Assembly (NCBI GenBank): GCA_024234215.1
Contig: JACKOQ010000005.1
Coordinates: forward strand, 121,452-185,451
DNA length: 64,000 nucleotides
Reading direction: 5' to 3'
Origin: Pseudomonadales bacterium
GTDB taxonomy: Bacteria > Pseudomonadota > Gammaproteobacteria > Pseudomonadales > UBA5862
In this document: positions 21,346 through 54,049 of the stretch, piece after piece
Position numbering within the stretch: position 1 is the stretch's first letter
Layout: the number at the start of each line of letters is the position of its first letter
The notes under the pieces: model-generated
The model's database searches: none
What the model was told of the DNA's origin: nothing
What the model saw: only the letters and a program-made list of their open reading frames with translations
Position numbers and translations under genes: made by a program

Positions 21346-21356
21346 AAAAAGCTCAC

Positions 21357-21382
21357 AGGTCGCCTCGAACGCAGGGTTAGAG
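21357..21382 (-). repeat. attC remnant (R''/L'' half only) of the HNH cassette
   Basis: GGTCGCCTCGAACGCAGGGTTAGAG resembles the right half of the other attC sites. Its GTTAGAG box complements CTCTAAC at 22082. The left half is replaced by the MITE repeat. Confidence 0.65.
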
Positions 21383-22075
21383 ATCATGGGTTCCCTTTCC
21401 GCGATTGCATTCAAAACAGAGTGTCCACAAGTTGTCCTCGCCGTTTGTGCCACCCTTTGCGACTGCGATCTTGTGGTCAACTTCCAGTCTGCTGCCTTCT
21501 TCGGCGGACGCCCCACAAATGCAGCACCGATATGAATCACGCTTGAAGATCGCGAACCGCTGAGTAACGGATATACCGGCCCGCACCTTTCCCTTCGCTC
21601 TAAATTCGGTGCAAGCTTCATCGAACGCGAGAATGGCTTCAGGTGCGGCATGCCTGAGGAGCAAGTAGCTTCTTATGTTTTCGAGGGAACTCGTTGTCCG
21701 CGGGAATGATCGGTCACGCTCCACATCACAGGCAAAATCACCAACCGGGTCGTCGCGCTTAGTTTGGCGAAGAAGCCAACGATAGAGTTGACTCCTTGCG
21801 GCCTTTTCAGCCTTGACGTCAGCGGCTGCCAGTTCGGCAATGATGTTTTTGGCATCTGATGGTCGGAAAAACTTTGTGTTTGGTTTCTTCGCGTAGCGCT
21901 CCCACGATTGAAGTGACTGCGCGTATCTCTGTGCACGAGTTGAAACGTGGTCGGGATCTTCAAAGTGCTGCGCAGGCTCGAACAAGTCGCAACGCGCACA
22001 GTAGTACATGTTTGGCGTTTCTTCATGATGGTCGCCATGAACGTAATAGCGAGTGCGTGCGGAGTGCCGGATCAT
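21377..22075 (-). CDS. cassette protein: YozE-like SAM-like domain fused to HNH endonuclease
   Basis: The central segment LYRWLLRQTKRDDPVGDFACDVERDRSFPRTTSSLENIRSYLL..FDEA aligns with B. subtilis YozE as I recall it. The C-terminus carries an HNH motif (CCICG..LEVDHKIAVAKGGTN..NLWTLCFECN). Confidence 0.7.
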   Translation of the reverse strand: MIRHSARTRYYVHGDHHEETPNMYYCARCDLFEPAQHFEDPDHVSTRAQRYAQSLQSWERYAKKPNTKFFRPSDAKNIIAELAAADVKAEKAARSQLYRWLLRQTKRDDPVGDFACDVERDRSFPRTTSSLENIRSYLLLRHAAPEAILAFDEACTEFRAKGKVRAGISVTQRFAIFKRDSYRCCICGASAEEGSRLEVDHKIAVAKGGTNGEDNLWTLCFECNRGKGTHDL

Positions 22076-22081
22076 GATGAT

Positions 22082-22168
22082 CTCTAACGTAGAGCTAACC
22101 GGCGCTGCGCGGCTTTATCGCGCAGCGTCCAGCGACCAAAGGGAGCGAGGTTGAGCGCCATGTTGGGC
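22082..22168 (-). repeat. integron attC site (87 bp)
   Basis: Bounded by CTCTAAC and GTTGGGC, with internal inverted repeats (TAACCGGCGCTGCGCGG...). Confidence 0.8.
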
Positions 22169-22173
22169 ATGCA

Positions 22174-22533
22174 CTAGTTCTTACTTTTTCTTGCGCTACA
22201 CAATGTCGTTGAGAGACCGCGATTCAATTTTATTTCTGTGCCCGCCTTAACGTAGCAAGCAATGGTCTTTTCCGAATTTACCGAACCGGCGCAGAGTTCA
22301 ACGGCGATGCCGCGAATAATGCCTTCATCTATTTTGGAAATGAGTCCATAGCACTTTGCGGGCTCGGGCGTCCATGCTCCGGAGCAAAGCTCAGTCCCCG
22401 ACCCGATATTGATCTCAGGGTCTATTTTGGTGACATCGTTCAAACAGTCGATTGGGTCATAAGCGAACGCGGCAGTACTGTAAACCATTGCGAAAGTAAG
22501 ACAAATAGCGCTTAGAGCTCCGGTTCTGGGCAT
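22174..22533 (-). CDS. cassette protein: small secreted protein with three Cys-containing repeats
   Basis: Signal peptide (..STAAFA), then three units of about 28 aa, each of the form C-x20-LC[SA][GA]. Confidence 0.6.
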   Translation of the reverse strand: MPRTGALSAICLTFAMVYSTAAFAYDPIDCLNDVTKIDPEINIGSGTELCSGAWTPEPAKCYGLISKIDEGIIRGIAVELCAGSVNSEKTIACYVKAGTEIKLNRGLSTTLCSARKSKN

Positions 22534-22557
22534 TTATCGTTCCCTCCTTATTTGCAT

Positions 22558-22626
22558 GCCCAACGTTCAAGGTAACCGGCCTTGCGCGGCTTTATGCGCA
22601 AGGTCCGGTTGACCGCAGGGTTCGGC
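22558..22626 (-). repeat. integron attC site (69 bp)
   Basis: Bounded by GCCCAAC and GTTCGGC. Inverted repeats GGTAACCGGCCTTGCGCGG / GCGCAAGGTCCGGTTGACC. Confidence 0.85.
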
Positions 22627-23121
22627 CCCAACGGATATTTCACTGAGCCGTTCTTCGGTGAATTTCCAAGCCGTAGGAATTCGGTCAATTGTTCCCGCCG
22701 CCTTGGCACGGCTTGTCCAGATGTGCTCCTCATACAAGATGGTGTCACCGCGCCCGGCTGCGGCCGCCTTCAACCACGAAGCAATTTCAGTTGGGGTGGC
22801 GAGATACATGCGAGGTAGCGCATCAATCGCGACGCCGCGAAATTGAACGAGGCAGAAGACGGTCTTCTTCGAATGCTTCTTCAACCAAGCATCTACGGCA
22901 CCGTGGTAGTCGGCGTTGGCGATGTGTGACTGCGTGAGGCCCCACCCACCGTCTTGGCTTCCTTTCACGGAAACTTTCAACATGCGTTCGCCGGAAACGG
23001 CGACCAGATCGTACTCGGGTTGATTAGCTCCGTACTGCACGGACACATCCCATCCACAGCGCGCAAACTGCGCGGCTGCAAATGCCTCTGCTGCTGTAGC
23101 AACCTGCCAAGAAGTAATCAT
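22567..23121 (-). CDS. cassette protein: PD-(D/E)XK-like nuclease-fold protein (tentative)
   Basis: Start chosen at MITSWQV (23121). The E..YDLVAV..KVSVK arrangement resembles small PD-(D/E)XK endonucleases of the VQVK type. The last 20 or so codons run through the attC. Confidence 0.45.
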   Translation of the reverse strand: MITSWQVATAAEAFAAAQFARCGWDVSVQYGANQPEYDLVAVSGERMLKVSVKGSQDGGWGLTQSHIANADYHGAVDAWLKKHSKKTVFCLVQFRGVAIDALPRMYLATPTEIASWLKAAAAGRGDTILYEEHIWTSRAKAAGTIDRIPTAWKFTEERLSEISVGAEPCGQPDLAHKAAQGRLP

Positions 23122-23133
23122 GTGCGTGTTGGG

Positions 23134-23262
23134 GCCGAACGTTCGAGTTAACCGGCCCGCGGAGGCAGGCACCGTAAGGCCGGGCTGAGATGATGCACCA
23201 TGTCCCTCAGCCCGGCCTTGCGGTGCCTGCCGTAGCGGGTCCGGTTGAACGAGGGGTTAGGC
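23134..23262 (-). repeat. integron attC site (129 bp)
   Basis: Bounded by GCCGAAC and GTTAGGC. By-eye alignment suggests about 85-90 percent identity to the attC at 24490..24618. Confidence 0.9.
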
Positions 23263-23308
23263 GTCGCCCGGGTGTGGACGAACGGCGACAGTCTCTTCCT
23301 ATCGATTG

Positions 23309-23602
23309 CTAAAAGCTTACCGAATCTCCGGGCGCGATCCACGGCACACCGTACGGCGTTCCCTGCTCAACGGTGATTTCGATTTCTGCAAACTTCCCAT
23401 CGGTACTGTAGGCCGTAATCGTTTGGCACGCATCGCGTGCCACGGCCCCTTCAAACAACTTCTTCATATTGGCCTTTTTGTCCTTTATTACGACAGTTTT
23501 TGTCCCTGTGCCGAACTTGTTGCACAACGAAAACGAGACGTCTGCGGCCATAGCAGGCGTTGCCGAAAGCACCAAGGCAAGTACACCAAATAGGTATTTC
23601 AT
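23309..23602 (-). CDS. cassette protein: small secreted protein
   Basis: Start chosen at MKYLFGVLALVLSATPAMA (signal peptide). 97 aa. It is the second gene of a two-gene cassette. Confidence 0.55.
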   Translation of the reverse strand: MKYLFGVLALVLSATPAMAADVSFSLCNKFGTGTKTVVIKDKKANMKKLFEGAVARDACQTITAYSTDGKFAEIEITVEQGTPYGVPWIAPGDSVSF

Positions 23603-23624
23603 TTTGCTTCTCCTTGAGTAATCG

Positions 23625-24446
23625 TCAATCGTAATTTGCCATCCATTTACTGTACCAGTCGCGATGACAATAGTTGTCGTAGGTGCGCGGCACCAGTTCT
23701 GAGCCTGCATATACTCGATAGACGTAAGCAGGAATCCAGTTGGAACCCTCGACTTTGATTCGACGGTCCGGATTGCGGTTTACGAGAACTATGCAACCGT
23801 CTCTTTGCTGAATTCTAAGGTCCTCGCACGCGTTGCCGCTGCACGGGCCGCCTGCCGCGGGGCCTCCCCCTGACGACTGAGTAGTGCGTGATGGTGGTGG
23901 CGGTGGTGGAGGCGGCGTTGGGCTTTGATCGCCTCGGCCGCTGCGGCCCCTATTAGTGACCCCTGGCGGAGCAACGCCAACTGGTGGTGACACTTCTCCC
24001 GGCCGCACGATTGGTTCGTACCCAGGTTGCCCCGGTTGAAATGCGATTCCGTAAGATGTTTTTCCGGCGCCTCGATCAATGGAGATGAAGTCCTCCATGT
24101 CGTATTCGTTCTGGTTCACCTGACAATATTTTTCTGTCTTGATTCCAGAGGTGTTCTCGACTCGGACACAGAAGTTCGGACCATCGCCGGACCACTTGCG
24201 ACTAGGCGATCGGGCGAATATGTACAGATATCGATTCTTTAGTACTTCGGTGATGATCTCCTTGCAGCTGGCGCCCTCCACGCGTCGATTCATGTACGTC
24301 ACCCACTCTTCGTTGACATACATTCGTACGGACACATAGATGGCCTCCGCATTTCGATTGCAGACGTTAAGTTGCGCATGTCCAGAAGTAGCGGCTAGCA
24401 TGGCGAGCGCGCCTATCGTCTTGCCGGACCATCCCTTGCAGTGCAT
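23625..24446 (-). CDS. cassette protein: secreted, DUF1036-like N-domain, poly-Pro linker, Cys-containing C-domain
   Basis: Signal peptide (..ATSGHA), then LNVCNRNAEAIYVSV, which resembles the DUF1036 start. A PPPPPPPP linker follows, then a C-terminal domain of about 75 aa. Confidence 0.55.
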   Translation of the reverse strand: MHCKGWSGKTIGALAMLAATSGHAQLNVCNRNAEAIYVSVRMYVNEEWVTYMNRRVEGASCKEIITEVLKNRYLYIFARSPSRKWSGDGPNFCVRVENTSGIKTEKYCQVNQNEYDMEDFISIDRGAGKTSYGIAFQPGQPGYEPIVRPGEVSPPVGVAPPGVTNRGRSGRGDQSPTPPPPPPPPSRTTQSSGGGPAAGGPCSGNACEDLRIQQRDGCIVLVNRNPDRRIKVEGSNWIPAYVYRVYAGSELVPRTYDNYCHRDWYSKWMANYD

Positions 24447-24489
24447 GAGCCCTCCCGATGTTTAGTTGGAGAAAGCGGTGGATTGCGAC

Positions 24490-24618
24490 GCCTAACGTTC
24501 GAGCTAACCGGCCAGCGGAGGCAAGCGCCGTATGCCCGGGCTGAGATGATGCACCAAGTGCCTCAGCCCGGGCTTACGGCGCTTGCCGTAGCGGGTCCGG
24601 TTGAGCGAGGGGTTAGGC
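24490..24618 (-). repeat. integron attC site (129 bp)
   Basis: Bounded by GCCTAAC and GTTAGGC. Paralogue of the attC at 23134..23262. Confidence 0.9.
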
Positions 24619-24619
24619 T

Positions 24620-25531
24620 TCACCAGCCGTAGTACCTCGATAGTGCGTTTGTCAGTAGGCCACCGGCGACACCAATTTCGACCTGCCACGCTGCATTGAT
24701 GGCCTTGTCCATCATTCGGGAGAGCCACGACCGGGTTTGCGGACCAAAGCTCTTCTCTGCAACCTCCGTACTCGTGGAGTCCGCGGCTATTGCCTGCTGC
24801 AGCGCGGCAACGTCGGATTCCTGCACTTGCTTTGCGCGCAGGAACGCGGCGAGTGAATCAAAGTCTCCGCGCTCGACTGAATTGCGAACAGTTTGCTGAT
24901 TATTGTGGCCGACCAAGATGGTCACGTTGTCGCCGAAAATGGCGTTGTTGAACATTGATCCTGTCTCGGGTGACTGTGCTACGCGCTTGACCGCTTCGTC
25001 CGACATATCTGCTCCAACCTTTTCACTCACGTCAAGCAGGAAGTCCAGGAGCTTCGACCGCACCTGAGCCGTGATTTGTGCAAACCGACCAATCCCAATA
25101 TCGCACCAAGCTTGCTGTACCTTGTAGCCGCCAGAGAGTGCTTTATTGAAGAACGCTGCATACTCCACCGGCAACGGGCGCTGAAGGCCCTTCGTATCGT
25201 GCTTGGCCAAACCCTCCAAGACGGCAATGGAATCGCGCATCTCGAGTTCTTCAAGACGCTTCCTTTGCTCCTTGGTTAGGTGCATTGTAGGTAGCGGGTG
25301 GTCAGAGTACGAGTATGCGTTGTTTGTGACATTGCCCTTGACATGGGCTGGGATGACGCGATAACTCGGAAGTGGAGCGTCGTCAGGATACCCGTTGATC
25401 TCGTTGTTAACCCAATCAACCAAGTCGCGCCGACCAACCCTGTGGAGAAGAACTTTCGTCTTCACGAGTGCGTCGATCAAACTCGGCTGGGGCTCCGAGA
25501 GTTCGGAAATTAGATCGGTGAGGAGCTTCAT
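24620..25531 (-). CDS. cassette protein: AbiTii-like abortive-infection family protein
   Basis: Start chosen at MKLLTDL (25531). The N-terminus SLIDALVKTKVLLHRVGRRDLVDWVNNEINGY..LPSYRVI matches the AbiTii N-domain pattern as I recall it. The C-terminus ends in a hydrophobic helix. This is the first cassette after attI'. Confidence 0.6.
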   Translation of the reverse strand: MKLLTDLISELSEPQPSLIDALVKTKVLLHRVGRRDLVDWVNNEINGYPDDAPLPSYRVIPAHVKGNVTNNAYSYSDHPLPTMHLTKEQRKRLEELEMRDSIAVLEGLAKHDTKGLQRPLPVEYAAFFNKALSGGYKVQQAWCDIGIGRFAQITAQVRSKLLDFLLDVSEKVGADMSDEAVKRVAQSPETGSMFNNAIFGDNVTILVGHNNQQTVRNSVERGDFDSLAAFLRAKQVQESDVAALQQAIAADSTSTEVAEKSFGPQTRSWLSRMMDKAINAAWQVEIGVAGGLLTNALSRYYGW

Positions 25532-25545
25532 AGGTGGATTGTGAA

Positions 25546-25641
25546 GCCTAACTATAAATGGACACCCCAAAAGGTGGCTTGTTTTACACCTTACGGGTGT
25601 CTAATATTTTGCCAGGCAAGGCTATACCGAGGTTAAGCGTC
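25546..25641 (-). other. attI' (second integron attachment site plus promoter region)
   Basis: 25549..25641 matches 52597..52689 with 2 mismatches. Homology begins exactly at the ..TAAC recombination point, and the junction reads GTTAGGC on the cassette strand. Confidence 0.8.
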
Positions 25642-25761: not shown

Positions 25762-25849
25762 GAGAATTGGGGACAGACCACGGTTTCCTGGTTTCTGCTC
25801 CGCTTTGGCAGAAAACCGTAACGGGAAACCATGGTCTGTCCCCAATTCT
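25762..25849. mobile_element. 88-bp MITE-like palindromic element
   Basis: 26-27 bp terminal inverted repeats with one mismatch in this copy: AGAATTGGGGACAGACCACGGTTTCC ... GGGAAACCATGGTCTGTCCCCAATTCT. An inner 9-bp hairpin is present. The second full copy is at 50030..50117. Confidence 0.85.
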
Positions 25850-26073
25850 ACAGGTGTTGGCGTGACATTCGCTGGTTGCTGCAGGGCAAAAAAGGCAGAG
25901 GACTTTCGTCAGATGAGCCAGTCCGGAGACAGCGCGTGACCCACAGTTCGCTGAGAAAATGAAGCCAGACTGACGCCCGTTTCAGCACCCGGTCGTGCTC
26001 GATCAATGCTGCACAGCAAAGCTGAGGCTGGCGGCTAGACTTTGCTGTGTGACTGCGTCTTCAGGGGGCAACA

Positions 26074-41416: not shown

Positions 41417-41630
41417 GCTCACGTCGATCGGTTCACCGGCGGTGGGGTTAAAGGAGGGATGGACCGGCAAACGGCCCATAAAAGCTGCGGGATGCTAGCA
41501 AAGGCAGGGGAATTTTGCCATGCAAACCGCCCCACTCACTGCCATCCCGGTGTGGCTGACATGGCTGAATAACGGCTCCGGCAGGTCGGACGCCGATTCA
41601 GTGGAGCATGAAGCGGCATCCTCTGGGACG

Positions 41631-42011: not shown

Positions 42012-42028
42012 GGTTTGGCGCTCCTTGG

Positions 42029-43243: not shown

Positions 43244-43265
43244 GGGGCTCCTCAATCAGGGATGT

Positions 43266-44042: not shown

Positions 44043-45193
44043 AGCCGCTCCGCCGCCTGCAGCAATACCGCATCACTCTTGGCGAAACAGAAGCGGACGA
44101 TGCGGGTCGCCGGTGGTGTCTGATAGAAGACCGACACCGGAATCACCGCCACCTTGGCCTCCCGGGTCAGCCACTGGGCGAACTCGACATCGTTCAGGTC
44201 GACGATGGCATCGTAGGCGGCCAGTTGAAAGTAGGTGCCCCGGCACGGCAGCAGCTCGAAGCGGCTCGGCTTCAGCGCGGCGGCAAAGAGGTCGCGCTTT
44301 TGCTGGTAGAAGGCCGGCAATCCGGCCAGATGCTCGGGCTGGGCGCGCAGGGTGTCGGCGATGGCCCACTGCGCCGGCGTGAAGCTGGCGAAGGTCAGAA
44401 ACTGATGCACCTTGCGGAACTCCGCCGACAGCGGCGGCGGCGCGATGCAGTAACCCAGCTTCCAGCCGGTGATGTGAAAACTCTTGCCGAAGGAGGAGAT
44501 GATGAAGCTGCGCGCCGCCAGCTCGGCATGACGGTGAAAACTGGCATGGTCGAGGCCATCGAAGTGGATGTACTCATACACCTCATCGGCGATCAGCCAG
44601 ATGTCGCGCTGGCGCACCAGCGCTGCCAACTGCTGCAGATCCTCGCCCGCCAGCACCGATCCGGTGGGGTTGTGTGGCGAATTGATGATGATCAGCCGGG
44701 TTCTGTCACTGATGCAGTCGGCCACTCGATTCCAGTCGATGCGAAACTCCGGCGCTTCGAGGGCAATGTGGCGGGCAGTGCCACCGCTCAATTCGATTGC
44801 CGGTTCGTAGGAGTCATAGGCCGGATCGAACAGGATCACCTCATCGCCGGGACGCACCACGGCGGTGATGGCGGCATAGAGCGCCTCGGTGGCGCCGGAG
44901 GTGACGGTGACCTCCTGCTCGGCATCGACCCGGCGCCGATAGCGGCGCGCCACCTGCTCGGCGATCGCCTCACGCAGCGTCGCCACGCCGGTCATCGGTG
45001 CATACTGATTGTAGCCCTGCTCGACATAGTGATGCAGCCGCTCGCGCAGCAGTGCCGGCCCATCGAAATCGGGAAAGCCCTGCGACAGATTGATGGCCCC
45101 GCACTCGGCAGCCAGCGCCGACATGCGGGTGAAGATGGTGGTGCCCACCTGGGGCAGCTTGCTTGGCAGTGGCCGGATCATGGGCAAGGTCAT
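44030..45193 (-). CDS. PLP-dependent aminotransferase (methionine/KMTB aminotransferase, YbdL/MtnE-like)
   Basis: Start chosen at MTLPMIRPLPSKL (45193). ..INLSQGFPDF.. and SFGKSFHITGWKLGY (PLP Lys). Confidence 0.8.
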   Translation of the reverse strand: MTLPMIRPLPSKLPQVGTTIFTRMSALAAECGAINLSQGFPDFDGPALLRERLHHYVEQGYNQYAPMTGVATLREAIAEQVARRYRRRVDAEQEVTVTSGATEALYAAITAVVRPGDEVILFDPAYDSYEPAIELSGGTARHIALEAPEFRIDWNRVADCISDRTRLIIINSPHNPTGSVLAGEDLQQLAALVRQRDIWLIADEVYEYIHFDGLDHASFHRHAELAARSFIISSFGKSFHITGWKLGYCIAPPPLSAEFRKVHQFLTFASFTPAQWAIADTLRAQPEHLAGLPAFYQQKRDLFAAALKPSRFELLPCRGTYFQLAAYDAIVDLNDVEFAQWLTREAKVAVIPVSVFYQTPPATRIVRFCFAKSDAVLLQAAERLCRL

Positions 45194-45335
45194 CGCTGTC
45201 TCGATCAAAGCCCGTCGGCGGTGCGCACGGGCGGTGCAGAACATCGGGTCGCCGTCGGAATGCAGGCCATGCGGCGCTGCGGCTTTCGGGCTATCATCGC
45301 CGCCACCCGAGGCAGCCAACACGAGGCCGGCAAGC

Positions 45336-45959
45336 ATGGCACAACCTGACGACGTGGATCAACTGGCCGAACGGCTGGTCGAGACGGTGCGCTTTTTTGC
45401 CGAAAATGGCCACTGTCCCGCCACCGGCGGCAACTTTTCGCTGCGCAGCGGCGATCGGGTGCTGATCACCGCCTCCGGTGTCGACAAGCGGAGCCTGACC
45501 CGCGCGCAACTGCTCGGCCTCACGCTCGATGGCCAGTTGTGCGCACCGGGCAAGCCCTCGGCCGAAACCGAGCTGCATCTGGCGCTCTACCGTGCCGACG
45601 CCGACATCGGCGCGGTGCTGCACATCCACTCCGTCGCCGCCACCGTGCTGTCGCGGCTGATCGACGGCGACACGCTGCCCCTGCACGGCTACGAGATGCA
45701 AAAGGCGATCAGTGGCATCGACAGCCATCAGCAGACGTTGCTGCTGCCGCTGGTCGACAACAGCCAGCAGATGGCCTGCATCGCCGAGCAGATCGAACGG
45801 CAATGGTCCACCGCCCAGCGTGCCCATGCGGTGCTGGTGCGTGGTCATGGCCTCTACGCCTGGGGTCATGATCTAGCAGCGGCCCGCCGCCACCTCGAAG
45901 GGTGGGAGTTCCTGCTCCAGTGTGAACTGAACCGACGGCTGCTGGAGCGAAACCCATGA
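45336..45959 (+). CDS. mtnB: methylthioribulose-1-phosphate dehydratase
   Basis: ATG at 45336. Class II aldolase fold (ATGGNFSLR..ITASGVDK..HIHS). Confidence 0.85.
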   Translation: MAQPDDVDQLAERLVETVRFFAENGHCPATGGNFSLRSGDRVLITASGVDKRSLTRAQLLGLTLDGQLCAPGKPSAETELHLALYRADADIGAVLHIHSVAATVLSRLIDGDTLPLHGYEMQKAISGIDSHQQTLLLPLVDNSQQMACIAEQIERQWSTAQRAHAVLVRGHGLYAWGHDLAAARRHLEGWEFLLQCELNRRLLERNP

Positions 45960-46648
45960 CGCTGCGCGCCATCGTCACCGACATCGAAGGCACCACCACC
46001 GACATCCACTTCGTCCACCGGGTGCTGTTCCCCTACGCTGCCGAACGGCTCGAAGGGTTCATCCGCCAGCATGGCGATGAGGCCGAGGTGGCCGCCCTCC
46101 TCGACCAGGTGCGTGAGGAGATCCGCCAGCCGCAGGCCACGGCTGCCGCATTGGTCGACACCCTGCAACAGTGGATCAAACTCGATCTGAAGCTGACCCC
46201 GCTGAAAAGCCTGCAAGGGCTGATCTGGCGCGAAGGTTACCAGCAGGGCCACTTCACCGCCCACATCTACCCCGAGGTGGCCGCTGCCCTGCGCGACTGG
46301 CAGCGGCATGGCTTGGCCCTCTATGTCTACTCCTCCGGCTCGGTCGAGGCACAGCGACTGCTGTTCGCCCACACCCAGGATGGCGACCTCACCCCGCTCT
46401 TCAGCGGCTACTTCGACACCCGCATCGGCGCCAAACGCGAACGCTCGAGCTATGACAGAATTGCCGAACGGATCGGCCTTGCCGGTGACGAAATCCTGTT
46501 TCTGAGCGATGTCGAGGCCGAACTGGATGCCGCTGCCGCCGCCGGTTTTCACACCTGCCTGCTGCTGCGCGATGGCGCCAACGGCAGCGGCCACCATCCA
46601 TCCGCCCACGATTTCGAGCAGATTCCACTCCTGCAGGAGCAGCCATGA
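45956..46648 (+). CDS. mtnC: acireductone synthase (enolase-phosphatase E1)
   Basis: IVTDIEGTTTDI HAD motif. Lies between mtnB and mtnD. Confidence 0.9.
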   Translation: MTLRAIVTDIEGTTTDIHFVHRVLFPYAAERLEGFIRQHGDEAEVAALLDQVREEIRQPQATAAALVDTLQQWIKLDLKLTPLKSLQGLIWREGYQQGHFTAHIYPEVAAALRDWQRHGLALYVYSSGSVEAQRLLFAHTQDGDLTPLFSGYFDTRIGAKRERSSYDRIAERIGLAGDEILFLSDVEAELDAAAAAGFHTCLLLRDGANGSGHHPSAHDFEQIPLLQEQP

Positions 46649-47196
46649 GCCACCTGACCCGCTACCACCAGGACCGACCCGAACAGCCACTCGGCAACAC
46701 GAGCGACGCCGAGGAGATTCGCGCGCTGCTGGCCGAGGCCGGCGTGCGCTTCGAGCGCTGGCGCGCCGACCGGCCGCTGCCGGCCGATGCCGATCAGGCA
46801 CAGATCGGTGCCGCCTACCGCAGCGAGATCGACCGGCTGATGCGCGAAGGCGGCTACCAATCCTGGGATGTGATCTCGATGCGGCCCGACCACCCCGACC
46901 GGCTGGCGATGCGGCAGAAATTCCTCGACGAACACACCCATGCCGAAGACGAAGTGCGCTTCTTCGTCGCTGGCGAAGGGCTGTTCAACCTGCACCTCGG
47001 TGAAACCGTTTTTGCGCTGCTCTGCCAGCGCGAAGACCTGATCAGCGTTCCGGCCGGCACCCGCCACTGGTTCGACATGGGCGATCAGCCCGACTTCATC
47101 GCCATTCGCCTCTTCACCAATCCCGAAGGCTGGGTGGCGCGGATGACCGGCGACGGGATCGGCCGCCGCTTTCCGTCCATCGACCACTACCGCTGA
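46645..47196 (+). CDS. mtnD: acireductone dioxygenase
   Basis: ARD cupin (..EHTHAEDEVRFFVAGEG..). Confidence 0.9.
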   Translation: MSHLTRYHQDRPEQPLGNTSDAEEIRALLAEAGVRFERWRADRPLPADADQAQIGAAYRSEIDRLMREGGYQSWDVISMRPDHPDRLAMRQKFLDEHTHAEDEVRFFVAGEGLFNLHLGETVFALLCQREDLISVPAGTRHWFDMGDQPDFIAIRLFTNPEGWVARMTGDGIGRRFPSIDHYR

Positions 47197-47276
47197 GCTG
47201 TGGTGCGTCATCGGCTTGTAATGCCGCGATGCTTGGAGTCTAATCTCGCCCTTTTTCCTTCGAGAGCGGCGTAACC

Positions 47277-48524
47277 ATGGCACTTTATGTGCAAAAATTT
47301 GGCGGCACCTCGGTTGGCACCCTGCCCCGCATCGAGGCGGTTGCCGAAAAAGTGGCCAGCTACCGCAACCAGGGACACGATCTGGTGGTGGTGGTCTCGG
47401 CCATGAGCGGCGAGACCAACCGCCTGCTGGGTCTCGCCCGGGATCTGGCCGATCCGGCCGACCCCCGCGAACTCGATGCATTGGTCTGCACGGGTGAGCA
47501 GGTCACCGCCGCACTGCTGGCCATGGCGCTGATCAAACGCGGCTGCCCCGCCCGCTCGATGAACGGCGCCCAGGTGCCGATTCTGACCGACAACGCCTTC
47601 ACCAAGGCCCGCATCGACCGCATCGACGACCAGGCGCTGCGCGCCGCGCTGGCGGCTGGCGAAGTGGTGGTGGTCACCGGATTTCAGGGGGTCGATGCCG
47701 AGGGCAACGTCACCACGCTCGGCCGGGGCGGCTCCGACACCACCGCCGTGGCGCTGGCCGCCGCCCTCAAGGCCGATGAGTGCCAGATCTACACCGATGT
47801 CGATGGCGTCTACACCACCGATCCACGGGTGGTTGAACGCGCGCGACGGCTGGAGCGGATCACCTTCGAGGAGATGCTGGAGATGGCCAGCCTCGGCTCC
47901 AAGGTGCTGCAGATTCGTTCGGTCGAATTCGCCGGCAAGTATGCCGTCCCGTTGCGGGTGCTCTCCAGCTTCGTGGAGGGCTCCGGCACCCTGATCACCC
48001 TGGAGAACCCGAACATGATGGAAAATCCGATCATCTCCGGCATCGCCTTCAACCGCGACGAAGCCAAGGTCACCGTGCTCGGCGTGCCCGATGTGCCCGG
48101 CGTGGCCGCACGCATCCTCTGCCCGATCAGCGACGCCAACATCGAGGTCGATGTCATCGTGCAGAATGTCGCCGCCGACAGGAGCACCGACTTCACCTTC
48201 ACCGTGCATCGCAACGACCTGCAGAAGGCGCTGGCAATCCTCAACGCCCAGGCCGGAGCACTCAATGCCCGTGAAATCAAGGGCGACAGAAGCGTGGTCA
48301 AGGTCTCGCTGGTCGGGGTGGGCATGCGCTCGCACGCCGGTATCGCCAGCAAGATGTTTGCTACACTTGCCGAGGTTGGGATCAACATCCAGATCATCAC
48401 CACCTCGGAAATCAAGATTTCAGTGGTGATCGACGAGAAGTACCTGGAACTGGCAGTTCGCTCCCTGCACACCGCATTCGGGCTGGACGCGCCCGAAGAG
48501 ATTGCCGTCGTCGAAGAGGGCTGA
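47277..48524 (+). CDS. lysC: aspartate kinase
   Basis: MALYVQKFGGTSVG..VVVSAM.. with C-terminal ACT domains. Confidence 0.95.
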   Translation: MALYVQKFGGTSVGTLPRIEAVAEKVASYRNQGHDLVVVVSAMSGETNRLLGLARDLADPADPRELDALVCTGEQVTAALLAMALIKRGCPARSMNGAQVPILTDNAFTKARIDRIDDQALRAALAAGEVVVVTGFQGVDAEGNVTTLGRGGSDTTAVALAAALKADECQIYTDVDGVYTTDPRVVERARRLERITFEEMLEMASLGSKVLQIRSVEFAGKYAVPLRVLSSFVEGSGTLITLENPNMMENPIISGIAFNRDEAKVTVLGVPDVPGVAARILCPISDANIEVDVIVQNVAADRSTDFTFTVHRNDLQKALAILNAQAGALNAREIKGDRSVVKVSLVGVGMRSHAGIASKMFATLAEVGINIQIITTSEIKISVVIDEKYLELAVRSLHTAFGLDAPEEIAVVEEG

Positions 48525-48605
48525 AAGCCCCGCCCAGACACTGGGTGCATGGCACCGCCCTTGAGCGGAACAAGATTCAAGAACGGAACAACGAGGAGAA
48601 ACGCA

Positions 48606-48794
48606 ATGTTGATACTGACCCGCCGGGTTGGCGAAACCCTGATCATCGGTGATGACATCACCGTCACCGTGCTGGGCGTCAAGGGCAACCAGGTGCGCCT
48701 GGGCGTCGACGCCCCCAAGGAAGTCTCGGTGCACCGCGAAGAGATCTACCAGCGCATTCAGGCCGAAAAACGGCAAGGCCACGACGACGAATGA
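48606..48794 (+). CDS. csrA: carbon storage regulator CsrA
   Basis: [48 protein letters not shown], with AGGAGA upstream. Confidence 0.95.
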
Positions 48795-48929
48795 GGTCGA
48801 TTCACGCTGCCGTGCGTGTTATCATGTCGCCCGCTTCGCGGCGGGTCTGACACCATCAGGCCGCGAATCTTCAAACCTGCCAGATCAGAACCGCAAGCCG
48901 TTCGTCCGCTGCGCTGTTCGACGTTTTCC

Positions 48930-49020
48930 GGAGAGGTGGCCGAGAGGCCGAAGGCGCTCCCCTGCTAAGGGAGTATGGGTCAAAAGCTCATCGAGGGTTC
49001 GAATCCCTCCCTCTCCGCCA
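48930..49020 (+). tRNA. tRNA-Ser (anticodon GCU)
   Basis: Acceptor GGAGAGG/CCTCTCC-G-CCA. Anticodon arm CTCCC[CTGCTAA]GGGAG. Long variable arm. T arm GAGGG-TTCGAAT-CCCTC. Confidence 0.9.
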
Positions 49021-49150
49021 CATCGCCATGCCAATGCAATCTCTTTCGCTGATCGGCTGGATCTTGCCAGTCCATCACCTGATGATTCCGGCAACACCAT
49101 ACAAATCATGCTCTTGACTCGAAATCGGGCAAGCTGTTCTGACCAAGAAC

Positions 49151-49170
49151 GGGAAACCGTGGTCTGTCCC
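49151..49170. repeat. solo terminal-repeat unit of the MITE-like element
   Basis: GGGAAACCGTGGTCTGTCCC lies 130 bp after tRNA-Ser, at the distal edge of array B. Confidence 0.75.
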
Positions 49171-49196
49171 AGATCCTTCGAAAACCGTCTCTTCAC

Positions 49197-49292
49197 GTCC
49201 AACCTCCGTCGTCTGGGGGATTGGACTCCAAACTACCGCACTACTCAAAATCGGGGGGACATCGGCACTTCGGGTGCAACGAAGGGTTAGCC
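49197..49292 (-). repeat. putative attC of the vapBC cassette (atypical)
   Basis: Bounded by GTCCAAC and GTTAGCC. The internal complementarity is only weak and unlike the other attC sites. GTTAGCC nearly complements GGATAAC at 49991. Confidence 0.35.
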
Positions 49293-49358
49293 CGCAGTAG
49301 CTTGACCGAGCCCGATACTTTAACCATAATGGAACCATTTTGGTTGGAGTGCCACACA

Positions 49359-49604
49359 ATGCCTACGACGCTGACCTTGAAGAACATTCCGGATGAGGTG
49401 TACGAGCGGCTCAAGCTCTCGGCTGCAGCCCACCGACGCAGCATGAACAGCGAGGCGATTGTGTGCCTGGAGACAGCGCTGCTGGCGAACAGGCTTGCTC
49501 CTGCCGAACGGCTTGCGCGAGCACGGACACTACGCGCGGCGTTGCCGAAGGGGAAGTTCCGAGCGACGGACATTGACGCCATGAAGCAAGAGGGCCGCTC
49601 GTGA
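49359..49604 (+). CDS. vapB: VapB-type antitoxin (ribbon-helix-helix, FitA/StbC-like)
   Basis: MPTTLTLKNIPDEVYERLKLSAAAHRRSMNSEAI. Overlaps the PIN gene by 4 nt. Confidence 0.8.
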   Translation: MPTTLTLKNIPDEVYERLKLSAAAHRRSMNSEAIVCLETALLANRLAPAERLARARTLRAALPKGKFRATDIDAMKQEGRS

Positions 49605-49996
49605 TTGTGGTGGACTCGAATGTGGTTGCGTACTTGTACTTGCCCGGCGAGCACACCGCCAAGGCGGAAGCCCTGCTCGAGCAAGACCCGGACTGGGCGG
49701 CGCCGGTACTGTGGCGCAGCGAGTTCCGCAACATACTTGCCGGATACCTGCGGCGCAAGATCCTGACCTTCGACCAGGCCTGCAGCCTTCAAAGTGAGGC
49801 TGAAGAGCTATTCGCTGGATCGGAGTTCGAGGTTGACTCGAAGGCAGTGCTTGAACTGGTACGCGACAGTGACTGCTCAGCGTATGACTGTGAGTTCATT
49901 GCGCTGGCGAACAAGCTGCAGGTCAAGCTGGTGACGATGAATGCCAAGCTTCTGAGGGCCTTCCCAAAGCGAACGATCTCGCTCGCTGCGGGATAA
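49601..49996 (+). CDS. vapC: VapC-type PIN-domain toxin
   Basis: MIVVDSNVV..(D)..SAYDCEFIALA, with acidic PIN residues. GTG start. Confidence 0.85.
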   Translation: MIVVDSNVVAYLYLPGEHTAKAEALLEQDPDWAAPVLWRSEFRNILAGYLRRKILTFDQACSLQSEAEELFAGSEFEVDSKAVLELVRDSDCSAYDCEFIALANKLQVKLVTMNAKLLRAFPKRTISLAAG

Positions 49997-50546
49997 CGAG
50001 GCTGGAGAATTGGGGACGAGAATTGCGACGAGAATTGGGGACAGACCACGGTTTCCTGGTTTCTGCTCCGCTTTGGCAGAAAACCGTAACGGGAAACCGT
50101 GGTCTGTCCCCAATTCTCCCAATTCTCCTAACGGGAAACCGTGGTCTGTCCCCATTTCTCCCTTTGAAGATGTCGTAGTATTTAGGTCTGGGTTCAGAAG
50201 AGTCGCGGAAGTACGCGATTGCATCAATGAGGAACAGCTCCGTAAGCTCTGGATCGAGCGAGATGGTGTCGTGCGGATCGCGATCAGCATGCTTGAAGAA
50301 GTTTTCTGGCTCATTCAAGGCTTTGATGACCGCGGCTCGTCGAGATTCTGGTAAGGAGTCAATGTAGTCCCGCTTGATGAACGGGTGCGGCGTCCCTTGC
50401 CGACTGGCGATATCCCTCAGAGCGTTGTACGCGGCGGAGGCAAGCGTATGAGTTGCTATCGCGTTGTCCGACACGAAGTACATCTCGATAGCCGCGTCGA
50501 GTTGTGAGCGGATAGCGTCAAACTTGGTTACCGTAATCTTCGCCAT
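49923..50546 (-). pseudogene. cassette gene of unknown function, 3' end replaced by MITE sequence
   Basis: ATG at 50546 (MAKITVTKFDAIRSQLD...). The native sequence ends near 50154 (..YYDIFKG). The rest of the ORF translates MITE repeats (GDRPRFPV occurs twice). Confidence 0.55.
50005..50153. mobile_element. MITE complex: degenerate 13-bp tandem units, one full 88-bp element and one extra terminal repeat
   Basis: GAGAATTGGGGAC / GAGAATTGCGAC / full element at 50030..50117 / CCAATTCTCCTAAC / GGGAAACCGTGGTCTGTCCCC at 50133..50153. Confidence 0.8.
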
Positions 50547-50558
50547 GTCTACGTAGGG

Positions 50559-50630
50559 GTCCAACGTGCGAATTCAGCGGACGGCAAAAAGCGCAGCTTT
50601 TTGACGGTCCGCTGGAATGACTTGTTGGGC
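50559..50630 (-). repeat. integron attC site (72 bp)
   Basis: Bounded by GTCCAAC and GTTGGGC. Inverted repeats CAGCGGACGG / ACGGTCCGCTG. Confidence 0.85.
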
Positions 50631-50631
50631 G

Positions 50632-51021
50632 TCATTTCTCGACCCTCTTACAAGCACCATCAAATGACCAAGCAGAAGTAGTAACGGCGAGCGTTTTACT
50701 TAAAGAAGAAAAATGCCCTTTGATGTTTCGTTGAGAGTCATAAATCTGAAGTTGATCGCCAACTTCAACAACGTGCTCAAAATATTCAAATGTTCTGTTT
50801 GGCACCTCCAGCCATACAGAGCCGTCAGAGTCACTCCACAAGCCTACCCACCACCTGTACTCGTGCAATTTCATGAAGACCGTGGCTTGCTGCGAATTGT
50901 TCTGAGCGGAAATTTCACCGGAGCATTGAAGGCGCGTTTCCACAGAAGAGAAATTAGCAACAAATAGAAATAGGCCGAGGGCTGCGACTAAGAATGCGCC
51001 CAAGTATTTCAGTAGCTTCAT
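50632..51021 (-). CDS. cassette protein: membrane-anchored or secreted, unknown function
   Basis: Start chosen at MKLLKYLGAFLVAALGLFLFV (51021), inside the cassette boundaries. 129 aa, AT-rich. Confidence 0.55.
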   Translation of the reverse strand: MKLLKYLGAFLVAALGLFLFVANFSSVETRLQCSGEISAQNNSQQATVFMKLHEYRWWVGLWSDSDGSVWLEVPNRTFEYFEHVVEVGDQLQIYDSQRNIKGHFSSLSKTLAVTTSAWSFDGACKRVEK

Positions 51022-51036
51022 GATCGCTCCATTGAC

Positions 51037-51162
51037 GCCCAACGCCAAGTTAACCGGCAGAACGGAGCCGGCTTGCCGGCGGAGTGGTTTGCAGTGGGGC
51101 GTAAAATTTTGCGGAGCAAAATGCCCCGCTGCAAACTGTCCGCGTTGAACGTATGGTTAGGT
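51037..51162 (-). repeat. integron attC site (126 bp)
   Basis: Bounded by GCCCAAC and GTTAGGT. Long internal palindrome (TTTGCAGTGGGGCGTAAAATTTTGCGGAGCAAAATGCCCCGCTGCAAA). Confidence 0.85.
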
Positions 51163-51168
51163 GCGGCG

Positions 51169-51459
51169 CTACAGAGTGCAATATGAGAACGCAATAGAGG
51201 CTCCCCGGTCAGTCTCGCAAATCATCTTCCCCGGCTGCGATACGCTATCGCATAGCATTTCTGACCATTTCTTGTGGCTCTCACAACCATCAAGATCCTT
51301 AAATCTTGCGGCGACAAAGCAGTTTGTTTCAGCGGCGCCGCATATCACATACTTGACCTGCGTCTCGCCTTTTGCGCCTTTAACACCTTCTGTATCGTCG
51401 CCAAGATTGCACCCACTGAAGAGCAGCAACAACGGAAGTATGAGAATGTAGCGATTCAT
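51169..51459 (-). CDS. cassette protein: small lipoprotein
   Basis: MNRYILILPLLLLFSGC lipobox. 96 aa with several Cys residues. Confidence 0.6.
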   Translation of the reverse strand: MNRYILILPLLLLFSGCNLGDDTEGVKGAKGETQVKYVICGAAETNCFVAARFKDLDGCESHKKWSEMLCDSVSQPGKMICETDRGASIAFSYCTL

Positions 51460-51465
51460 CAAAGC

Positions 51466-51526
51466 ACCTAACGTTTGCCATCAACCGGCCTGCCGAAGGC
51501 AGGTCCGGTTGATGGCGGGGTTGGGC
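51466..51526 (-). repeat. integron attC site (61 bp)
   Basis: Bounded by ACCTAAC and GTTGGGC. Inverted repeats CATCAACCGGCCTGCC / GGCAGGTCCGGTTGATG. Confidence 0.9.
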
Positions 51527-51783
51527 AGCCCGCACTCGGCCGACCGGTGGGCGAGCGCACCGAACCGCCGAGTCGCCCGCGCCAGCGGGGACGGCTGGAT
51601 GCATGGCCACACCGAGCGGTGCACCGAGCAGACGCCGCTGGCGCCCGGTGGAGCGGCACCGCGAGTGCGCCGCCCGCCAGCGGACGGGCGGCCCGCGCTG
51701 GCGGTCGTGCTGCACTTGTTCGATGCGCTCATGCGGTGGTTATCGACTTGGCGCTTCGATAGAAACCAGACACCGCGCATTAC

Positions 51784-51870
51784 GCCCAACGTTCGCCATA
51801 ACCGGCAGTGAAAAGCGGTGCGACGAAGGAGCGCCGCTTTTCACTGTCCGCGTTGATGGCGTTGTTATGT
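51784..51870 (-). repeat. integron attC site (87 bp)
   Basis: Bounded by GCCCAAC and GTTATGT. Inverted repeats CAGTGAAAAGCGGTG / GCGCCGCTTTTCACTG. Confidence 0.9.
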
Positions 51871-51873
51871 GGG

Positions 51874-52572
51874 TTACAGCTTGGCAACATCAATGTGATA
51901 CCCCTGGGCTGCCATTTCTTTAGCGAGTAGAGTGCCTGCTTCTTTCTGAAGGTCGTCCTTGAATGGGATGTATATCAAGCCTTGGATATCTGAAGGCCGT
52001 TCCATATTGGCTTGTTGTTTGAGAAGGATGGCCACTCGACTTCGGCCTAACCGCGACAGAAGCATGCCCAGTTCAAGAACAACATTTTGACGGGCCCGGT
52101 ATGCTTTCTCGTCGTCACGGCCTGCGCGATGGCCTTCGTCGTCAGGCGTTGCAAGGACCACAGCAAAGTGAATTTCTGCTGTGTACTTTTCCAGCTTCTC
52201 GATGATTGTTTGTCCTTCAGATGGGAGTTGATCAAGGATTAATGGTTCAAGCCCCCAACGACGCAACATAGCCTCAAGATGGTTCCGTGCAGTTTCGTCG
52301 TGGCCATAAACCACAAATACCTTTTTGTTCCCACCTGCCACAACAGGGGTGCCTGCTGTTGTTGCGGCGGTGGAAACAACTGGTGCGCCTAGAGCGGCTT
52401 TGATTTCAGGCTGGCACTTACCTTGAACATTGAAATTGCCTGTGTCGAAGATATTGACGATACCGCCATTCGCGAGCCTAAGCTGCCAACCCGTGTCGTT
52501 GTTCAATCGCTGTTCAGATGTAATCGCAAGGCCAGCAGCGGTAAGCAATCCCTTTGCTTGACTAATGTCCAC
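51874..52572 (-). CDS. cassette protein: TIR-like nucleotide-binding domain protein (PF10137/COG4271 type, CAP12/PycTIR-like effector domain)
   Basis: The C-terminal 130 aa read KVFVVYGHDETARNHLEAMLRRWGLEPLILDQ..TIIEKLE..FAVVLATPDD..RARQNVVLELGML..RPSDIQGLIYIPF. A small N-terminal domain of about 55 aa and an Ala/Thr/Gly linker precede it. This is the first cassette after attI. Confidence 0.75.
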   Translation of the reverse strand: MDISQAKGLLTAAGLAITSEQRLNNDTGWQLRLANGGIVNIFDTGNFNVQGKCQPEIKAALGAPVVSTAATTAGTPVVAGGNKKVFVVYGHDETARNHLEAMLRRWGLEPLILDQLPSEGQTIIEKLEKYTAEIHFAVVLATPDDEGHRAGRDDEKAYRARQNVVLELGMLLSRLGRSRVAILLKQQANMERPSDIQGLIYIPFKDDLQKEAGTLLAKEMAAQGYHIDVAKL

Positions 52573-52593
52573 GATGGCTATCTCCTGGAAAGC

Positions 52594-52689
52594 ACATAAC
52601 TATAAATGGACACCCCAAAAGGTGGCTTGTTTTACACCTTGCGGGTGTCTAATATTTTGCCGGGCAAGGCTATACCGAGGTTAAGCGTC
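52594..52689 (-). other. attI (integron primary attachment site plus promoter region)
   Basis: The cassette/attI junction reads GTTATGT on the cassette strand. The region contains a 41-bp nested palindrome and candidate Pint and Pc promoters. Confidence 0.8.
52627..52655 (+). promoter_or_regulatory. candidate Pint promoter
   Basis: TTGTTT-N17-TAATAT about 35 bp upstream of the intI ATG. It overlaps the attI palindrome. Confidence 0.35.
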
Positions 52690-52696
52690 ATGTCAA
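52669..52696 (-). promoter_or_regulatory. candidate Pc cassette promoter
   Basis: On the minus strand, TTGACA-N16-TATAGC. The -35 box overlaps the intI start codon, and transcription would run through attI into the cassettes. The same sequence is present at 25621..25648. Confidence 0.4.
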
Positions 52697-53700
52697 ACGT
52701 GGTAGTACACCCCAAAACGATTGTCGACCACGCCTCCGGCGGGGCATCCAAGCCGAAGCTGCTGGATGAGGTACGCGCCCACATCCAGCGGTTGAACTAC
52801 AGCATCCGCACCGAGGATGCGTACGTCGATTGGGTACGCCGGTTCGTGCTGTTTCACGACAAACGCCACCCGCGGGAGATGGGTGCAGCCGAAATCGAGG
52901 CGTTTCTGACCCACCTCGCGGTGGTGGGCAAGGTGTCGGCGTCCACCCAGAACCAGGCCAAGAGCGCGCTGCTGTTTCTTTATCGGGCTGTATTGAATGT
53001 CGACTTGCCGTGGCTGGGCGACATCGCATCGGCCCGGCAGGGCAAGCGCTTGCCGGTGGTGCTGACAGTGGCCGAAGTACAGGCGACGCTGGCGCGGGTA
53101 ACCGGCACGACCGGCCTGATGGTGCGGCTCTTGTACGGCAGCGGGCTGCGGTTGATGGAGTGCGCGCGGCTGCGGGTGAAGGATGTGGATTTCGGACAGA
53201 TGCAGATCGTGGTGCGCGATGGCAAGGGCGACAAGGACCGCGTGACAATGCTGCCGCGATCCCTGGTGGAACCTCTGCAAGCGCATCTGGAGCGCGTGAA
53301 GGCGCTGCACGAGAGCGATATCGAAGCGGGCTACGGCGAGGTATACCTGCCCCATGCGCTCGATCGCAAATACCCCCGGGCCGGCCGGGAATGGGGCTGG
53401 CAGTATGTGTTTCCGTCCACCAGGCGGTCGGTCGATCCCCGCTCCGGGGCCATCCGGCGTCACCATGCGGATGAAAAAGTACTGCAGCGGGCGATGAAGC
53501 GAGCCGTGCGCGAGGCCGGCATCGTCAAACCCGCCACCCCGCACACGCTGCGCCACAGCTTCGCCACGCACTTGTTACAGGCCGGCTATGACATCCGCAC
53601 CGTGCAGGAGCTGCTCGGTCACACCCACGTAGAAACCACGATGCTCTACACCCACGTCCTGAATCGGGGTGGGCGAGGAGTGGTCAGTCCGCTCGACTGA
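52690..53700 (+). CDS. intI: integron integrase
   Basis: ATG at 52690. [22 protein letters not shown] (compare IntI1 [22 protein letters not shown]). Catalytic region [19 protein letters not shown]...[23 protein letters not shown]. IntI-specific insert [22 protein letters not shown]. Confidence 0.92.
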
Positions 53701-53917
53701 GCGGACTGAGGCGAAGCACTGCTTTGCCAGCGACGAGCGGGCGAGCGATGCCACGCGAGCCCTGGATCGAGGAGTGGTCAGTCCGCTCGATCAGTCAGTT
53801 GTAGACCGATCACCTGGTTGGCGGATGGAGACTCGTGTGGCGTTGCCGAGACACTCGGGCGCCCAGGACTGGCGGGATTCGGCCGATCAGAGCATGAGAT
53901 CGCATCGGCATGGAATG

Positions 53918-54008
53918 TGGCGGAGAGGGAGGGATTCGAACCCTCGATACGCTATTAACGTATACACACTTTCCAGGCGTGCTCCTTCAACCACTCGGAC
54001 ACCTCTCC
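53918..54008 (-). tRNA. tRNA-Ser (anticodon GGA)
   Basis: The reverse complement reads GGAGAGGTGTCCGAGTGG..CACGC[CTGGAAA]GTGTG.., with a long variable arm and ending ..GAGGGTTCGAATCCCTCCCTCTCCGCCA. Confidence 0.9.
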
Positions 54009-54049
54009 GCAAACCTGGCTGACCCTGCGGGGTCAAAAGGCCGGCAAAT

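Follow-up and report, generated by a model that had tools for sequence, protein, structure and literature searches.

Environmental chromosomal integrons are exemplified by those of Pseudomonas stutzeri and Xanthomonas, and in the Vibrio array, far more than a hundred cassettes strong, the attC sites are nearly identical and are known as Vibrio cholerae repeats (VCRs). The 64,000-nt stretch analysed here (the window; contig JACKOQ010000005.1 of the Pseudomonadales bacterium assembly GCA_024234215.1) carries an element of this well-known kind, a locus at 50163-53700 that is with very little doubt a complete chromosomal integron, with an intact integron integrase (IntI), four complete gene cassettes and one truncated cassette. 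It is a real but ordinary integron, and nothing in it changes what is known of how integrons work; its moderate interest lies in a decapitated second array, in a repeat element that marks every truncation, and in the position of the arrays at synteny break points. An initial annotation of the region had described a chromosomal integron with intI, attI and an array, a description that is supported here with corrections to the cassette count and to the left limit, which by implication had taken in the vapBC genes of the flank, and with the addition of a second array that it had not reported.

A complete integron is defined by an integron-integrase-specific profile and PF00589, together with at least one attC site that a covariance model recognises no more than 4 kb from intI (Cury et al., 2016, PMC4889954). 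Clusters of attC sites lacking an integron integrase are termed CALIN; a CALIN in a genome that also encodes IntI has been discussed as a split integron, and 15 of 279 CALIN have an intI pseudogene nearby (PMC4889954). Like the environmental chromosomal integrons of proteobacteria, the present locus has an integrase with the intI-specific insert, divergent and promoter-less cassettes that end in attC, mostly uncharacterised small proteins and a cassette G+C content below that of the host, and the arrays upstream of its nearest IntI relatives are matched by the same attC model. It differs from them in an integrase that is at most 73% identical, in a short array of four to five cassettes, and in cassette proteins for which no relative was found in 80 loci. 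The size that serves as an alternative mark of sedentary integrons, more than 19 attC sites (PMC4889954), is not reached by either array, the first having four attC sites and the second four plus a stump.

The integrase, attI and the attC sites

The integrase gene and the adjacent recombination site comprise the following features.

52690..53700, + strand: intI, intact, an unbroken full-length open reading frame (ORF) of 336 aa
52594..52689, unstranded: attI, with the crossover between 52599 and 52600 (AA/C on the + strand, G/TT on the cassette strand)
52631..52658, + strand: candidate intI promoter, TTTACA-16-TATTTT; consensus scan, 9/12 matches, prediction only
52667..52696, - strand: candidate cassette promoter Pc, TTGACA-18-TAGCCT, directed towards the cassettes; relaxed scan, 9/12 matches, prediction only

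The ORF at 52690-53700 had been called a tyrosine recombinase with an integron-specific segment, to be checked against an intI-specific hidden Markov model, and it passes that check: the protein reaches 482.9 bits against TIGR02249 (NCBIfam 'integron integrase'; cut-off 265), covering profile positions 1-313 of 315, whereas the XerC and XerD models give merely 141-144 bits against cut-offs of 330-335. Pfam identifies Phage_int_SAM_4 and Phage_integrase (PF00589, 2.9e-37), and IntI therefore shows the IntegronFinder-type combination of an integron-integrase-specific profile with PF00589. The alignment to PDB 2a3v, which is VchIntIA (IntI4 of the Vibrio cholerae superintegron), spans residues 25-335 (E 2.7e-91) and includes both the IntI-specific segment and the catalytic motifs (GH..TT..YTHV among them). 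The two proteins belong to the same family at the level of the fold and can be aligned from end to end, also in the segment through which the extrahelical attC bases are contacted; their relationship is only distant, although nearly all of the length is covered by the alignment. The narrower NCBIfam equivalog NF011946 is not reached (385.2 bits, cut-off 435). Among species representatives, the closest IntI proteins share 62-73% identity with it (65-70% in most cases, maximum 73%), and the integrase already bears the annotation 'integron integrase' in metagenome-assembled genomes named 'Pseudomonadales bacterium'. By its sequence, IntI belongs, intact, to the integron-specific subfamily of tyrosine recombinases.

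A 94-bp tandem repeat (53674-53790) begins within the final 27 nt of intI and includes its stop codon; the window has one unit and a second copy of its 23-nt start, and four related contigs (L115 to L118) have one unit more, the IntI protein being identical across L109-L118.

The attI site lies next to intI and is crossed at G/TT, as in integrons generally. The window contains two copies of attI with the 5' part of intI, at 25546-25761 and 52594-52809, which show three mismatches and diverge exactly at AA/C. The candidate Pc is spared in every truncated copy of intI seen, the break points being 52699, ~52775, 52808, 52835, 52892 and 53155. Between 52611 and 52649, attI repeats the motif ACACC(C/T) three times, twice in direct and once in inverted orientation (GACACCC ... 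TACACCT ... GGGTGTC), and IntI may bind these copies as accessory sites; copies two and three also make a small hairpin that was flagged as terminator-like by a scan.

The attC sites were located with covariance models. A first model, R1, drew on the second array only (described below), whose four attC sites supplied the collapsed cores, and was run on 80 integron loci of other species that had been fetched with IntI, where it found 189 sites (E <= 0.05), all on the intI-sense strand and, by a reading of the hit positions, 188 of them upstream of intI. R1 was dropped for a second model because it left long or divergent sites unscored, attC_A and attC_B among its own sources included. Since the test model had to be independent of the array in question, this substitute, R2, was built from 150 of the foreign sites, with no site from the window, and was run with filters off. 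On the 64-kb window R2 returned exactly eight sites of 37-65 bits, all on the + strand (E <= 3e-6), and the next-best match is the opposite strand of attC2 (10.9 bits, E 2.4). The four that belong to the first array lie 0.8-2.1 kb from intI, within the 4 kb of the definition.

51784-51870, + strand: attC1; R2 37.4 bits, E 2.7e-6; hairpin folding free energy (dG) -29.7 kcal/mol, z -6.25
51466-51526, + strand: attC2; R2 45.7 bits, R1 38.4 bits; dG -25.0 kcal/mol, z -7.58
51037-51162, + strand: attC3; R2 44.2 bits, E 8e-8
50559-50630, + strand: attC4; R2 49.4 bits, E 5e-9, R1 22 bits; dG -21.1 kcal/mol, z -5.65

These scores of 37-49 bits (E 3e-6 to 5e-9) place the four sites at the coordinates that the initial annotation had given them. 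At gathering thresholds, Rfam reports only two tRNAs in the window.

Across all eight sites, 93.6% of pair cells are paired, vs 23-49% when the partners are slid, and compensatory changes are found in five stem pairs. The fold is that of integron attC sites, consisting of an R box, an unpaired spacer, an L box and a stem, with extrahelical bases on the 3' arm, and the sites (61 to 129 nt) are heterogeneous, unlike those of Vibrio, except in the pair attC_A and attC_B. When attC1 to attC4 are folded as single-stranded DNA, the + strands have z-scores of -4.4 to -7.6 and are 0.4-2.9 kcal/mol more stable than the - strands; those of attC1, attC2 and attC4 adopt the canonical hairpin, in which single bases bulge out of the 3' arm (three in attC1), and the extrahelical bases and orientation expected from a bottom-strand fold are thus seen in these three. 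Because the + strand hairpins are the more stable and carry their bulges on the 3' arm, it is the + strand that recombines as the bottom strand, and the genes in the cassettes point away from attI.

The boundaries were also tested by complementarity, in which the first six bases of a cassette are compared with the distal box of its own attC. The eight box sequences previously listed are exact: ACATAAC (52594-52600) with GTTATGT (51864-51870), GCCCAAC (51784-51790) with GTTGGGC (51520-51526), ACCTAAC (51466-51472) with GTTAGGT (51156-51162), and GCCCAAC (51037-51043) with GTTGGGC (50624-50630). Four consecutive cassettes pass, as had been claimed, and an array-walking script returns the same four boundaries; with both arrays counted, all nine cassettes that keep a distal box pass.

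Cassettes of the first array and their variation in related contigs

The cassettes lie upstream of intI on the opposite strand, and each complete one is a promoter-less unit that ends in attC.

51790..52599, - strand: cassette 1, 810 bp; ORF 51874-52572, TIR-domain protein of 232 aa; attC1
51472..51789, - strand: cassette 2, 318 bp, 71% G+C; attC2
51043..51471, - strand: cassette 3, 429 bp; ORF 51169-51459, putative lipoprotein of 96 aa with a signal peptide ending LFSGC; attC3
50565..51042, - strand: cassette 4, 478 bp; ORF 50632-51021, 129 aa with a hydrophobic N-terminus; attC4
50163..50564, - strand: cassette 5, truncated; ORF from 50546 with no stop before the repeat cluster; no attC

About six cassettes had been proposed, with a left limit at 49171; we find four complete cassettes and a truncated fifth. 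The fifth junction, GTCCAAC at 50559-50565, closes attC4, the array-walking script found no complement of this box further left, and the covariance model found no attC in 48900-50558 (best score 5.1 bits). Cassette 5 lacks its 3' end and attC, both lost to a palindromic repeat cluster, and the integron proper is 50163-53700, with its array at 50163-52599. The vapBC genes to the left (49359-49996) are a genuine toxin-antitoxin pair, with a FitA-like ribbon-helix-helix domain (4e-14) and a PIN domain (3e-7). Six related contigs carry the block 40606-50009, which contains lysC, csrA, tRNA-Ser(GCT), vapB and vapC, at 99.3-99.7% identity, irrespective of the DNA beyond it; in three of the six, vapC is followed by 185 nt and a small array (attC, ABM cassette, attC) that is fused to the repeat element and unrelated genes, with no attI or intI. 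Since no attC bounds vapBC and the block is conserved regardless of its neighbour, vapBC and everything left of 50010 are conserved chromosomal flank and not a cassette. A candidate attC at 49199-49349 (GTCCAAC ... GTTGGAG), which would have made vapBC an inverted cassette, was rejected at 5 bits and only a 6-bp hairpin.

The cassettes had been described as AT-richer than their surroundings, which holds for cassettes 1, 3, 4 and 5 (47-53% G+C, vs 63-64% in the flanks) and fails for cassette 2. At 71% G+C, vs 47-57% in every other cassette, cassette 2 has several internal inverted repeats; it is open in two antisense frames, and no ORF could be called in it with confidence. Along its whole length the ORF of cassette 1 matches PADLOC's PDC-S35 family (E 6.6e-107); it also matches Pfam CAP12-PCTIR_TIR (8.9e-36), and a literature search on 'PDC-S35' returned no match. 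The ORF of cassette 3 matched no family in NCBIfam, Pfam or PADLOC-type profile searches, and the other cassette proteins of both arrays, which are small, secreted or located in the membrane, likewise match no family. In tblastn searches of all cassette proteins against the 80 integron loci of related species, no true homologues were found.

In both arrays the cassette nearest to attI carries a defence-type gene, TIR/PDC-S35 in the first and AbiTii in the second. Defence genes carried as integron cassettes have been described (Kieffer et al., bioRxiv 10.1101/2024.07.02.601719; PMC12614218). The present arrays resemble those reports in that the first cassette of each encodes a defence-type protein, and differ in that a defence role of these proteins is predicted here from sequence, PDC-S35 being listed in PADLOC only as a 'candidate' family. 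A defence-type gene at the head of both arrays agrees with the view, taken recently, that integrons store anti-phage genes.

Relatives of the locus were found as metagenome contigs of 98-100% identity, by a 26-mer of attI and by exact-protein look-ups of neighbouring genes. Those samples that are labelled are activated sludge, and the host appears to be an uncultured, apparently abundant Pseudomonadales bacterium of activated sludge, to judge from the names attached to proteins of at least 90% identity; one source has 'Accumulibacter sp.' instead, probably through different binning. In the window and these contigs together, 12 different cassettes are joined to the same attI at the same base, AA/C, and six different first cassettes adjoin the intact intI alone. 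One attI with 12 different first cassettes, always joined at AA/C, shows cassette turnover; the identical gene content in all relatives that was said to count against an integron is therefore not what is seen, the variation being present at the exact crossover point. Contig L086 lacks the TIR cassette, with cassette 2 abutting attI, retains the ORF of cassette 3 at 100% identity, and has a different sequence beyond the GTCCAA/C box of attC4; junctions at attC boundaries vary likewise, after attC4 in L086 and after attC_D in L085. The phospholipase-like protein in contig L110 belongs to another first cassette.

In all ten places shown among 23 contigs read, which are metagenome contigs and not a defined genome set, the neighbours of the full-length intI are tRNA-Ser(GGA) and a nitroreductase gene. 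The same place in all genomes, which marks sedentary integrons, is thus found for this locus on metagenome contigs. By the established mechanism of integrons, IntI would recombine a folded attC with the double-stranded attI, cutting between G and TT, such that a circular cassette enters at the first position; excision through IntI would proceed between two attC sites or between attI and attC, and a promoter in the attI/intI 5' region would drive the proximal cassettes.

The second array, the palindromic repeat and synteny breaks

A second array lies 27 kb from the intact intI and is accompanied by copies of a palindromic repeat.

21347..25551, - strand: second array, comprising five cassettes (A to E), of whose attC sites four are intact
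24496-25551, - strand: cassette A, AbiTii (ORF 24620-25531)
23140-24495, - strand: cassette B, a DUF1036 protein and a secreted protein of 97 aa
22564-23139, - strand: cassette C, weak PD-(D/E)XK match
22088-22563, - strand: cassette D, 119 aa
21347-22087, - strand: cassette E, HNH endonuclease; own attC cut at 21346
24490-24618, + strand: attC_A, R2 64.8 bits
23134-23262, + strand: attC_B, R2 62.3 bits
22558-22626, + strand: attC_C, R2 64.9 bits
22082-22168, + strand: attC_D, R2 43.2 bits
25552..25761, + strand: second attI, with candidate promoters and the initial 72 nt of intI (start 25642), then the repeat element
25762..25850, unstranded: repeat element, 89 bp, at the break of the second intI copy
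21326-21346, unstranded: single repeat arm, abutting the cut attC at the other end of the second array
50004..50162, unstranded: repeat cluster at the distal end of the first array, with the 89-bp element at 50030-50118, an extra arm at 50129-50162 and short GAGAATTGGGG motifs

Cassettes A to E all pass the complementarity test on their first six bases (5/5). The second attI differs from 52600-52809 at three positions, and the homology ends at 25761. Its array has the properties of a CALIN (at least two attC sites on one strand with no nearby integrase), since it has four attC sites in 22082-24618, an intI reduced to 72 nt with no functional copy within 4 kb, and an IntI encoded elsewhere in the genome. 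It differs from a typical CALIN in keeping attI, the candidate promoters and the 72-nt stump of intI, which makes it a decapitated integron and not an orphan array. In related contigs the first cassette at this locus is A, C, D or a novel one. The window and L085 have an identical intI break (52808), yet their first cassettes are A and D, respectively, which suggests that precise IntI-type events went on after the local loss of intI; the intact IntI could serve this array in trans over the 27 kb.

The palindromic element of 89 bp has perfect 27-nt inverted arms (GAGAATTGGGGACAGACCACGGTTTCC) around a 35-nt asymmetric centre, resembling a repetitive extragenic palindromic doublet forming a hairpin (REPIN) or a transposable element of the miniature inverted-repeat type (MITE). 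Its seven copies in the window (21326-21346, 25762-25850, 49147-49170, 50004-50162) are all at, or within ~1 kb of, an array end. Related contigs have the element, in L082 and L088 in a degenerate form, directly next to intI at six different break points and in both orientations. Contigs with a common outer context have different break points (52808 vs 52835; 52699 vs ~52775), which look like nested deletions from the element's end. No target-site duplications were seen by eye around the element, and no transposase and no Rfam family were found for it. Copies were also observed at integron pieces in L082-L085, L087, L088, L101 and L103, and L103 has the same repeat cluster as the distal end of the first array with different DNA beyond it. 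In MITE-flanked integrons of Acinetobacter (PMC3934969), a short palindromic non-coding element likewise stands at both ends of the fragment and cuts intI. The element here is 89 bp, vs 439 bp in Acinetobacter, and belongs to a chromosomal integron outside classes 1-5; neither a target duplication nor a mobilisation event is shown here, and the break points vary within a common outer context.

The flanks of the arrays were compared in contigs L089, L092, L095, L099-L103 and L109 against window positions 21000-26000 and 49000-54000. Seven flank blocks (hom-thrC, CBS-GGDEF, bestrophin-thiolase, csrA-vapBC, nitroreductase, lysA, rpiA) occur in combinations that differ between contigs, and at every join there is an array, a copy of attI/intI, the palindromic element or an insertion sequence (IS). 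Since blocks are always rejoined through integron pieces, repeats or IS elements, the integron pieces mark synteny break points; some of the joins could be assembly chimeras. In contig L001 (= L114; sample ERZ27299533), cassette A is joined to the full-length intI of the nitroreductase locus, with two single-nucleotide polymorphisms (SNPs) of the second array in attI and one of the first array in intI, a mixture that stems either from exchange between the loci or from chimeric assembly.

From these observations a dispersed system may be drawn, which we put forward tentatively and think rather less probable than not. The 89-bp repeat would have repeatedly cut intI (at six or more break points) and the arrays, integrase-less attI arrays at several chromosomal sites would keep a candidate promoter and go on acquiring or shedding cassettes by way of the one intact IntI in trans, and the integron and repeat copies would act as rearrangement hubs.

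Alternative readings and flanking features

That the palindromes are ordinary intergenic repeats or terminators, beside a Xer-like recombinase and with coincidental box complementarity, had some footing in a loose hairpin screen (an AAC...GTT core with a stable single hairpin), which yields 63 candidates in this G+C-rich window; the screen missed attC3 and attC_D and was set aside as too unspecific in G+C-rich DNA. This explanation is refuted by the distance of IntI from the XerC and XerD cut-offs (141-144 vs 330-335 bits) beside 483 bits for the integron model, by R2, which sets the eight sites apart by more than 26 bits and with strict strand asymmetry, and by the nine of nine cassettes with a distal box that pass the complementarity test. 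The integron could instead be a mobile one, carried on a transposon, plasmid or integrative element, and copies of attI plus array do stand in no fewer than three or four chromosomal contexts, with the same palindromic repeat at the bounds of each, while MITE-flanked and probably mobilised integrons are known (PMC3934969). Such a carrier is highly improbable here, as housekeeping genes surround both arrays (thrC, hom, lysC, csrA, purF, gap and acnB), no tni, transposase or conjugation genes stand beside intI, the NF011946 cut-off is not reached (385 vs 435 bits), and the intact intI is found at one locus in 10 of 10 places.

The locus might also be a relic whose intI is intact yet inactive, the differences between strains having arisen when homologous recombination or natural transformation swapped array blocks, and not through IntI. 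The arrays and the attI/intI copies do lie at synteny break points beside repeats and IS elements, the mixed SNP pattern of L001 suggests homologous exchange or chimeric assembly, and transformation-driven cassette shuffling has been reported (PMC12614218). Homologous exchange, however, needs homology on both sides, and all 12 of 12 attI junctions fall at AA/C with unrelated DNA beyond; the full-length intI ORF is moreover kept at its locus in 10 of 10 places while other copies decay. We consider the relic improbable, slightly less so than a mobile carrier, and favour the complete chromosomal integron, which is apparently active.

Several points weigh against this preferred reading. The apparent activity is read from population variation, and the metagenome contigs may be chimeric across the ~210-bp attI/intI repeat; because this repeat exceeds assembler k-mers, the links between array and context are less certain, and the attI-cassette junctions, being short-range, are safe. 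IntegronFinder's criteria were applied with TIGR02249 and self-built attC models in place of its own. The minimum-free-energy fold of attC3 is branched with its outer boxes unformed, and the boxes pair in the model alignment only. The candidate Pc is only a 9/12 consensus match from the relaxed scan, the standard promoter scan having found none on the - strand, and no canonical LexA box (CTG-N10-CAG) was found in the 52501-52800 searched. The many variants of the locus in public metagenomes make it a convenient natural system for studies of cassette turnover, intI decay and the use of IntI in trans.

Two further observations concern the flanks. An IS30-like element (rve and HTH_38, ~1.1 kb) lies between tRNA-Ser(GCT) and vapB in L099, L100, L105 and L106, its insertion point being a small GTCCAA...TTGGAC hairpin, the one in the rejected attC candidate at 49199-49349, with window bases 49225-49227 duplicated on both sides. 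The first integron itself sits between two convergent tRNA-Ser genes, GCT and GGA, which are 82% alike, and the next 48 nt past the 3' ends of both genes are 81% alike in inverted orientation (regions 48925-49073 and 53866-54013), an arrangement that may go back to an inverted duplication or to insertion at this site long ago.

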